A DNA stretch of 64,000 nucleotides from Escherichia coli (GTDB lineage: Bacteria > Pseudomonadota > Gammaproteobacteria > Enterobacterales > Enterobacteriaceae), in NCBI RefSeq assembly GCF_009931435.1, contig NZ_CP043414.1; one strand, written 5' to 3'. This document shows, one piece after another, positions 40,930-41,062 of the stretch (positions are counted from its first letter, which is position 1; each line of letters starts with the position of its first letter). A program made the translations under genes and the position numbers. Under the pieces are notes generated by a model. That model ran no database searches and was not told where the DNA came from. It saw only the letters and a list, made by a program, of their open reading frames with translations.

Positions 40930-41062
40930 TACTTATACTCTAAATAATTCAAGTTGCAGGAAGGCGGCAAGCGAGTGAATCCCCAGGAGCTTACATAAGT
41001 AAGTGACTGGGGTGAGCGAACGCAGACGCAGCACATGCAACTTGAAGTATGACGAGTATAAC
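40930..41062. repeat. ERIC (IRU) element
   Basis: imperfect ~130-bp palindrome with ERIC core GTGAATCCCCAGGAGCTTACATAAGTAAGTGACTGGGGTGAGCG in the panC-rpnC intergenic region. Confidence 0.8.

Follow-up and report, generated by a model that had tools for sequence, protein, structure and literature searches.

A canonical short-form ERIC element at a TA dinucleotide immediately downstream of panC in a divergent Escherichia genome

The stretch of DNA analysed here, referred to as the window (64,000 nucleotides of contig NZ_CP043414.1, deposited as Escherichia coli), carries between the convergent genes panC and rpnC a 127-nt imperfect palindrome. This is an ERIC (IRU) of the canonical short form, one of a family of non-coding palindromic repeats that resemble MITEs. 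ERICs are 127-bp palindromic repeats of enteric bacteria that have been known since 1990–91, and were reportedly described by Sharples & Lloyd 1990, by Hulton, Higgins & Sharp 1991, and by Wilson & Sharp 2006. The element is called an ERIC on the basis of its length, its core, its match to the consensus over the full length, its terminal inverted repeats (TIRs) and hairpin, the TA duplication at its ends, the dispersed copies elsewhere, and its polymorphism among strains. The kind of element is already known, every ERIC/IRU hallmark that could be tested is present, and the finding is an ordinary one in which the initial annotation identified the element correctly. We regard it as very probable that the panC copy is a canonical ERIC at a TA dinucleotide, lying in the transcribed panBC 3′ UTR, neutral to mildly protective in its effect, and dispensable. 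The features of the region are as follows.

40078..40929, + strand: panC, pantoate--beta-alanine ligase (open reading frame; Pfam PF02569, E = 5.7e-107; RefSeq annotation of a 99.8%-identical record)
40934..41060, + strand: ERIC/IRU element, short (127-bp) form, both TA copies included (core, consensus and hairpin; ends from the HS and MY504 empty sites)
40934..40935, no strand: left TA of the target-site duplication (comparison of filled and empty sites)
41059..41060, no strand: right TA of the target-site duplication (comparison of filled and empty sites)
40933..40958, + strand: left terminal inverted-repeat arm, AU-rich, UAAAUAAUU, on the 5′ side in panC-sense RNA (inverted repeat, 26 nt, 85% complementary)
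41036..41061, + strand: right terminal inverted-repeat arm (pairs with 40933..40958)
40975..41018, + strand: conserved ERIC core, holding a small central hairpin with arms at 40981–40994 and 40999–41012 (44/44 match)
41063..41095, + strand: terminator-like hairpin TGGCGCTACGGCTGATGGCGCCA (41063–41085) followed by the tail ATTATTAATT, outside the ERIC (terminator scan; conservation)
41150..42070, − strand: rpnC, YhgA-like recombination-promoting nuclease, convergent with panC (open reading frame; Pfam PF04754, Transposase_31/YhgA-like, E = 2.2e-87; annotation)

Identity and structure of the element

The palindrome extends from 40934 to 41060, with outer arms of 26 nt that are 85% complementary, and contains at 40975–41018 an exact 44/44 match to the ERIC core, GTGAATCCCCAGGAGCTTACATAAGTAAGTGACTGGGGTGAGCG. 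This is the sole copy of the core within the window, it was matched in 0 of 100 dinucleotide-preserving shuffles, and the + strand of the element is in the conventional core orientation (GTGAATCCCC...). The core is seen again in five other E. coli loci, with 0–3 substitutions per copy and with no change in three of them; it is the region to which the ERIC1R and ERIC2 primers correspond. An ERIC-core palindrome directly after panC is what the initial annotation had proposed, and the coordinates it gave, 40930–41062, are right to within four flanking bases on the left and two on the right.

A consensus was built from the copies at yeiS-preT, yafP-rtcB, ybhJ-ybhI, cusF-cusC and pgk-fbaA, which were retrieved from E. 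coli by junction query, and from which the window copy was left out. All five copies are 127 nt in length and align without gaps, and the window copy is identical to their consensus at 125/127 positions, end to end and with 0 gaps; a poor alignment to the ERIC consensus had been named beforehand as grounds for rejecting the assignment. The two differences are G18A and A34G. The first, where the window has CAAGTTG and the consensus CGAGTTG, replaces a G-U pair by an A-U pair, and at the second the window reads GGCGGCAAG and the consensus GGCGACAAG. Apart from these we see nothing of substance that differs from ERIC/IRU elements as reviewed for the Enterobacteriaceae, and the window copy is like them in every tested feature, including its intergenic position beside the 3′ end of a gene (PMC3184786, PMC2229807, PMC10969869).

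In the panC sense the RNA of the element forms a single long hairpin of −54.2 kcal/mol (z = −8.62); for the other strand the value is −47 kcal/mol (z = −6.42), and 200 shuffles gave no fold equally good. Searched against 5,425 E. coli genomes the element finds a median of 7 megablast places per genome, and the five other loci inspected are all intergenic. A chance palindrome is ruled out by the shuffle controls together with the recurrence of the sequence in the 5,425 genomes.

The only Rfam match to the element is to V_AS5 (RF02818, Vibrio RNA AS5), which aligns over the full length of the model (positions 1–129, E = 6.6e-9) and with which it shares the core and the long hairpin. V_AS5 belongs to another genus, however, and the score of 49.8 bits lies below the gathering score of 96 and thus outside RF02818, in a database that has no ERIC family. 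The full-length alignment could be read as pointing to a separate gene for a small or antisense RNA of the Vibrio RNA AS5 kind, but we consider this extremely unlikely given the sub-threshold score, the dispersal of the same sequence at many loci, and a promoter scan that found no site on the + strand in or beside the ERIC and two on the − strand, both outside it. The match more plausibly indicates homology with ERIC-like repeats of vibrios, and not membership of the family. Similarities of a looser kind extend to the Correia/NEMIS elements of Neisseria and to other bacterial MITEs, which are likewise small and non-coding, have TIRs and a TA duplication, are co-transcribed with their neighbours, and give hairpin RNAs that nucleases can process (PMC3184786, PMC10969869); Correia elements are unrelated in sequence, however; they are cleaved by RNase III and have promoter and IHF motifs, features that are not known of the E. 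coli ERIC.

A sensitive blastn search found no second full-length ERIC in the window, and only a hairpin of about 60 nt at 13967–14027 (−17.3 kcal/mol, z = −4.25) that resembles the ends of an ERIC. This lies between clcA-like and hemL-like open reading frames, and its ends are similar to ERIC termini (TATACTCTA...GACGAGTAT), as though a central segment of about 70 nt had been deleted. It is fixed in E. coli, being found at about 97% identity in 5,424 of the 5,426 genomes, and yadX, an annotated small gene, overlaps it.

Insertion site, downstream hairpin and neighbouring genes

The panC stop codon (TAA, 40927–40929) is 4 nt before the insertion, and 89 nt separate the right end of the ERIC from the rpnC stop codon. 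Both flanking genes are as the initial annotation had named them, according to Pfam and to the annotation of the 99.8%-identical RefSeq record, in which the gene order is panB, panC, rpnC, panD and the palindrome itself carries no annotated feature. At the empty site the sequence reads ...GTAATACT-TA-ACTGGCGC..., and at the filled site ACT-TA-[TACTC...GAGTA]-TA-ACTGG. Alignment of filled and empty junctions gives ...GGCGTAATACT-TA-ACTGGCGC... for E. coli HS and MY504, and a single TA is also present at the empty site of E. whittamii and others. Because these empty sites show a single TA, the ERIC has been inserted into the TA 4 nt past the panC stop codon with duplication of that TA, for a net gain of 125 bp. 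TA target duplication has been described for ERICs (PMC3184786, PMC2229807).

Two nucleotides beyond the ERIC, on the panC strand, is the terminator-like hairpin listed above, which folds independently of the ERIC and is the sole terminator-like site in 40500–41500. The scan that found it is a simple consensus match, for which the accompanying shuffle control puts the number of chance sites at about 1.0 (sd 1.1), and is hence weak alone. The 26-nt hairpin core, TAACTGGCGCTACGGCTGATGGCGCC (41063–41088), is identical in E. albertii, E. whittamii and two other Escherichia species (L015, L018, L019 and L020) while the rest of the spacer varies, and it is present in strains and species that are free of the ERIC; in empty strains the hairpin is only 8 nt after the panC stop codon. 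We conclude that the hairpin at 41063–41095 is probably a conserved panBC terminator. Because it also exists in strains and species without the ERIC, the element was most likely inserted between the panC stop codon and the probable terminator, and thus within the panBC 3′ UTR. The position in the panC 3′ UTR proposed in the initial annotation is plausible on this anatomy, in which the ERIC is preceded by the stop codon and followed by a terminator-like hairpin whose tail is T-rich.

The position of so stable a hairpin between two convergent genes also raises the question of whether the palindrome is itself an intrinsic terminator, perhaps bidirectional, of panC and rpnC. Such terminators have a GC-rich stem-loop followed by a run of T/U, but here the stem is followed by TATAACTGG, and the + strand after the stem reads UAUAACUGG, with no T-run in either; moreover, the scan picks only the separate hairpin at 41063–41085, and the existence of that hairpin without the ERIC implies that termination is independent of the ERIC. 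We therefore regard a terminator role for the palindrome as very unlikely.

Several further observations concern the neighbouring genes. An open reading frame of 100 aa on the − strand (40806–41108) crosses the ERIC and extends over the end of panC. This frame is almost certainly spurious, although gene callers could call it. Within rpnC, at 41276–41323 on the − strand, the 12-nt unit AATCCCCTTCTC is repeated four times in tandem, giving RpnC a GIEK repeat close to its C-terminus. The rpnC gene is highly variable by strain, being frameshifted in HS, accompanied by an annotated transposase in a record of Nissle 1917, and elsewhere replaced or annotated as ‘hypothetical’. Upstream of panB, a fimbrial-like adhesin open reading frame (37922–39154) is intact in the window (410 aa), and the same adhesin is annotated as frameshifted (L001:282-1561) in 2020CK-00188, the closest complete genome. 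The panB-panC-rpnC segment (39269–42070) is more divergent from other Escherichia than is the nearby core, with panB being 85–91% and panC 88–94% identical to other Escherichia, E. coli representatives included; the final 69 nt of panC, like the downstream hairpin, are 91–100% identical, in contrast to the rest of the segment. The segment is a local mosaic beside the variable yad fimbrial operon.

Distribution, alleles and descent

Strain-to-strain presence and absence of ERICs is the premise of ERIC-PCR typing, and the initial annotation had anticipated it for this site. The panC-rpnC junction was compared using a 251-nt query for which 80% coverage can be reached only with the ERIC and both flanks contiguous. 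By this measure the junction is occupied in 427 of 5,426 complete E. coli genomes and empty in about 92% of them, and in HS and MY504 it is cleanly empty. The short form, as in the window, accounts for 18 of the 427 occupied genomes (R32_14_1F, 2013C-4282 and WL297 are examples); the other 409 have a long form with a nested insert of 71 nt, and are mostly O157:H7 and O55:H7, together with strains such as D72 and OkiPb01700. K-12, like HS, is an empty strain. Junctions at least 99% identical to the O157 long-form junction are found in 295 genomes. Whether the site is occupied depends on lineage, and within a lineage the state is stable, with no sign of current mobility.

Species-representative genomes were covered by one scan, with the 26-nt downstream hairpin sequence as query. 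The short form is present in E. albertii NBRC 107761, where it is identical to the window copy at 125/127 positions, and the long form in Escherichia sp. E1V33; the site is empty in E. whittamii, in Escherichia sp. MOD1-EC7003, and in two E. coli representatives. The O157, E. albertii and E1V33 copies carry both of the window variants, CAAGTTG and GGCGGCAAG. Because all of the occupied copies share these two site-specific variants, the panC-site copies appear to be orthologous and descended from one old insertion. Its patchy occupancy could mean that precise losses followed the old insertion, or that recombination has exchanged alleles. The ERIC is 98.4% identical between the window and either E. 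albertii or E1V33, and the flanking panB, panC and rpnC genes are 85–95% identical; on these comparisons the ERIC is conserved beyond its neighbours, which points either to constraint or to gene conversion between copies. A recent introgression of the ERIC tract from E. albertii was considered and rejected, as the hairpin and the final 69 nt of panC show the same conservation in E. whittamii, where the site is empty, and this conservation is thus not peculiar to ERIC carriers.

There are thus three alleles after panC, these being the empty site, a 127-bp ERIC, and a 198-bp ERIC with the nested 71-nt hairpin module, and they are shared across E. albertii, cryptic Escherichia lineages and E. coli. 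One account of this three-state TA polymorphism is that precise gain and loss of ERICs, or of the nested module, is continuing, with palindrome-stimulated excision, ectopic gene conversion between ERICs, or an unidentified transposase as conceivable routes; another is that alleles of the panBC 3′ UTR are under selection. We hold either to be quite unlikely. The ordinary account would be one old insertion redistributed by homologous recombination.

A functional tie to rpnC, in which RpnC, a YhgA-like ‘putative transposase’ or nuclease, mobilises or cuts the ERIC, borders on the implausible. The two are adjacent, being 89 nt apart, the rpnC product is in the Pfam family Transposase_31, and no transposase of ERICs is known; on the other hand, about 92% of genomes have rpnC without the ERIC, there is no annotated rpn gene in the flanks of about 400 bp around the five other ERIC loci, and neither terminal similarity nor any other link was seen. 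Because no transposase that moves ERICs is known, the term ‘MITE’ is descriptive only, of the form of the ERIC, and is not a demonstrated mechanism. The reviews name no partner transposase for ERICs (PMC3184786, PMC3116915).

ERICs lengthened by internal insertions of about 70 bp were reportedly described by Sharp 1997, who is said to have noted internal ERIC insertions, and by Wilson & Sharp 2006. The long forms in O157:H7, O55:H7, D72, OkiPb01700 and E1V33 are like the window copy in insertion site and in the flanking ERIC sequence, and differ in that the window copy is without the 71-nt nested module. At the panC site the 71-nt insert follows ...GCGAGTG (O157:H7 SS17, L002:886-956). The same insert, at 97–100% identity, is found in ERICs beside rpiA (E2348/69) and ybfA (EC1), and it occurs in 616 of 5,426 genomes, nearly always as a single copy. 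A related 78-nt insert is located at the mirrored internal site of a yeiS-preT ERIC, and the rpiA-side ERIC of E2348/69 holds both; besides L002, inserts of these kinds were seen in records L005, L019, L021, L022, L023 and L012:493-570. The 71-nt and 78-nt inserts are direct, and not inverted, paralogues, and each consists of three to four small hairpins in series, with compensatory changes in the stems and a conserved CATGGATG loop. An Rfam scan of the long ERIC forms gave weak, sub-threshold matches only.

The survey of Wilson & Sharp 2006 is said to have included O157:H7 genomes, and for that reason the panC locus is probably already in its listing. A total of 14 further ERIC loci have been reported in non-K-12 E. 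coli (PMC10969869, citing Wilson & Sharp 2006).

As to the genome itself, the core genes in 44000–54000 (gcd, cueO to yadG/yadH, speE) are about 95.5% identical to K-12 and to most E. coli, and only three of 5,426 complete genomes (e.g. R32_14_1F) are at least 99% identical over this interval. Because of these values we regard the window as coming from a divergent, cryptic-clade-like Escherichia lineage deposited as E. coli. We also note that a 4.3-kb contig (CALXDF010000219.1) in a metagenome-assembled genome labelled ‘uncultured Oscillospiraceae’ has an E. coli-type panC-rpnC junction, which is empty, and is probably mis-binned Escherichia.

Possible effects on panBC mRNA

The ERIC would be transcribed within the panBC 3′ UTR as a hairpin (about −54 kcal/mol) that begins 5 nt past the stop codon. 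Such a hairpin could act as a barrier to 3′-to-5′ exonucleases ahead of the terminator, and its effect would be neutral to mildly protective. The element is dispensable at the panC site, because most strains are without it.

For our scan we took RNWUU as the RNase E-type motif, and our mapping of the A and B orientations follows the reviews and what De Gregorio 2005 reportedly described. RNWUU is absent from the whole of the panC-sense ERIC RNA, whose 5′ arm is the AU-rich one, and GAAUU is found in the 3′ arm only in the rpnC-sense ERIC RNA. For an effect on mRNA stability, which the initial annotation had raised, the precedent is Yersinia. There, an ERIC that is transcribed together with the gene upstream of it reduces the amount of that gene's transcript, in one orientation only, and the proposed cause is that a ribosome impedes folding such that an RNase E site in the 3′ TIR is unmasked (PMC3184786, PMC2229807, PMC3049150, PMC10969869). 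The panC copy is similar to these mRNA-regulating ERICs in its family, its TA duplication, its proximity to a stop codon, and its likely co-transcription with the upstream gene, but differs in the RNase E-type site which that mechanism needs: adjacency to the stop codon (4 nt) is present, and the site in the 3′ TIR is absent. Because the orientation does not provide the Yersinia destabilising arrangement, a neutral or mildly stabilising effect is predicted.

We have nonetheless weighed the opposite effect, in which terminating ribosomes block formation of the hairpin, an RNase E or RNase III site is exposed, and the panBC mRNA decays faster than in empty-site strains. Its attraction is that the first paired base is 4–5 nt from the stop codon, such that a terminating ribosome would cover the 5′ arm, and that this is the mechanism proposed for the Yersinia ERICs (PMC3184786, PMC2229807, PMC10969869). 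The reported site is in the 3′ TIR, however, and the panC-sense RNA has its AU-rich arm on the 5′ side and is without RNWUU. The stop-proximal copies at ybhI and cusC (1–6 nt) are, furthermore, in the orientation opposite to that of the panC copy, and the copies 62–178 nt past a stop codon (pgk, yeiS and yafP) are oriented as it is, although with a sample of five loci, two of them stop-proximal, this is anecdotal. We judge such destabilisation to be unlikely. Stop-adjacent Yersinia ERICs are reportedly usually in the other orientation, with which the small E. coli sample agrees; by analogy the panC copy would be an exception to that rule, and its behaviour is harder to predict.

A reading that we take considerably more seriously, and to which we give somewhat less than an even chance, is that the ERIC is an inert fossil that does nothing measurable in cis to panC or rpnC and is retained only by drift and by inheritance within lineages. 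The empty-site majority of E. coli keep an intact panC and rpnC and the same hairpin, and occupancy is lineage-bound and stable, as with the 295 closely matching O157 long-form junctions. Against this, the greater conservation of the ERIC than of its flanks in E. albertii and E1V33 suggests constraint or gene conversion, and a 3′ UTR hairpin of this stability is unlikely to be without any effect on RNA decay. We favour an ERIC that is transcribed in the panBC 3′ UTR and is neutral to mildly protective.

Past correct annotation the element matters little; labelling it as an ERIC keeps the hairpin from being taken as a terminator or an sRNA, and guards against the spurious 100-aa minus-strand open reading frame. 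As far as the reviews show, the effect of ERICs on mRNA decay has been tested only in Yersinia (PMC3184786, PMC2229807, PMC3049150, PMC10969869). With its three natural alleles, empty, short and long, each available in named strains, the panC site is a convenient natural experiment on an ERIC in a 3′ UTR and mRNA decay in Escherichia.
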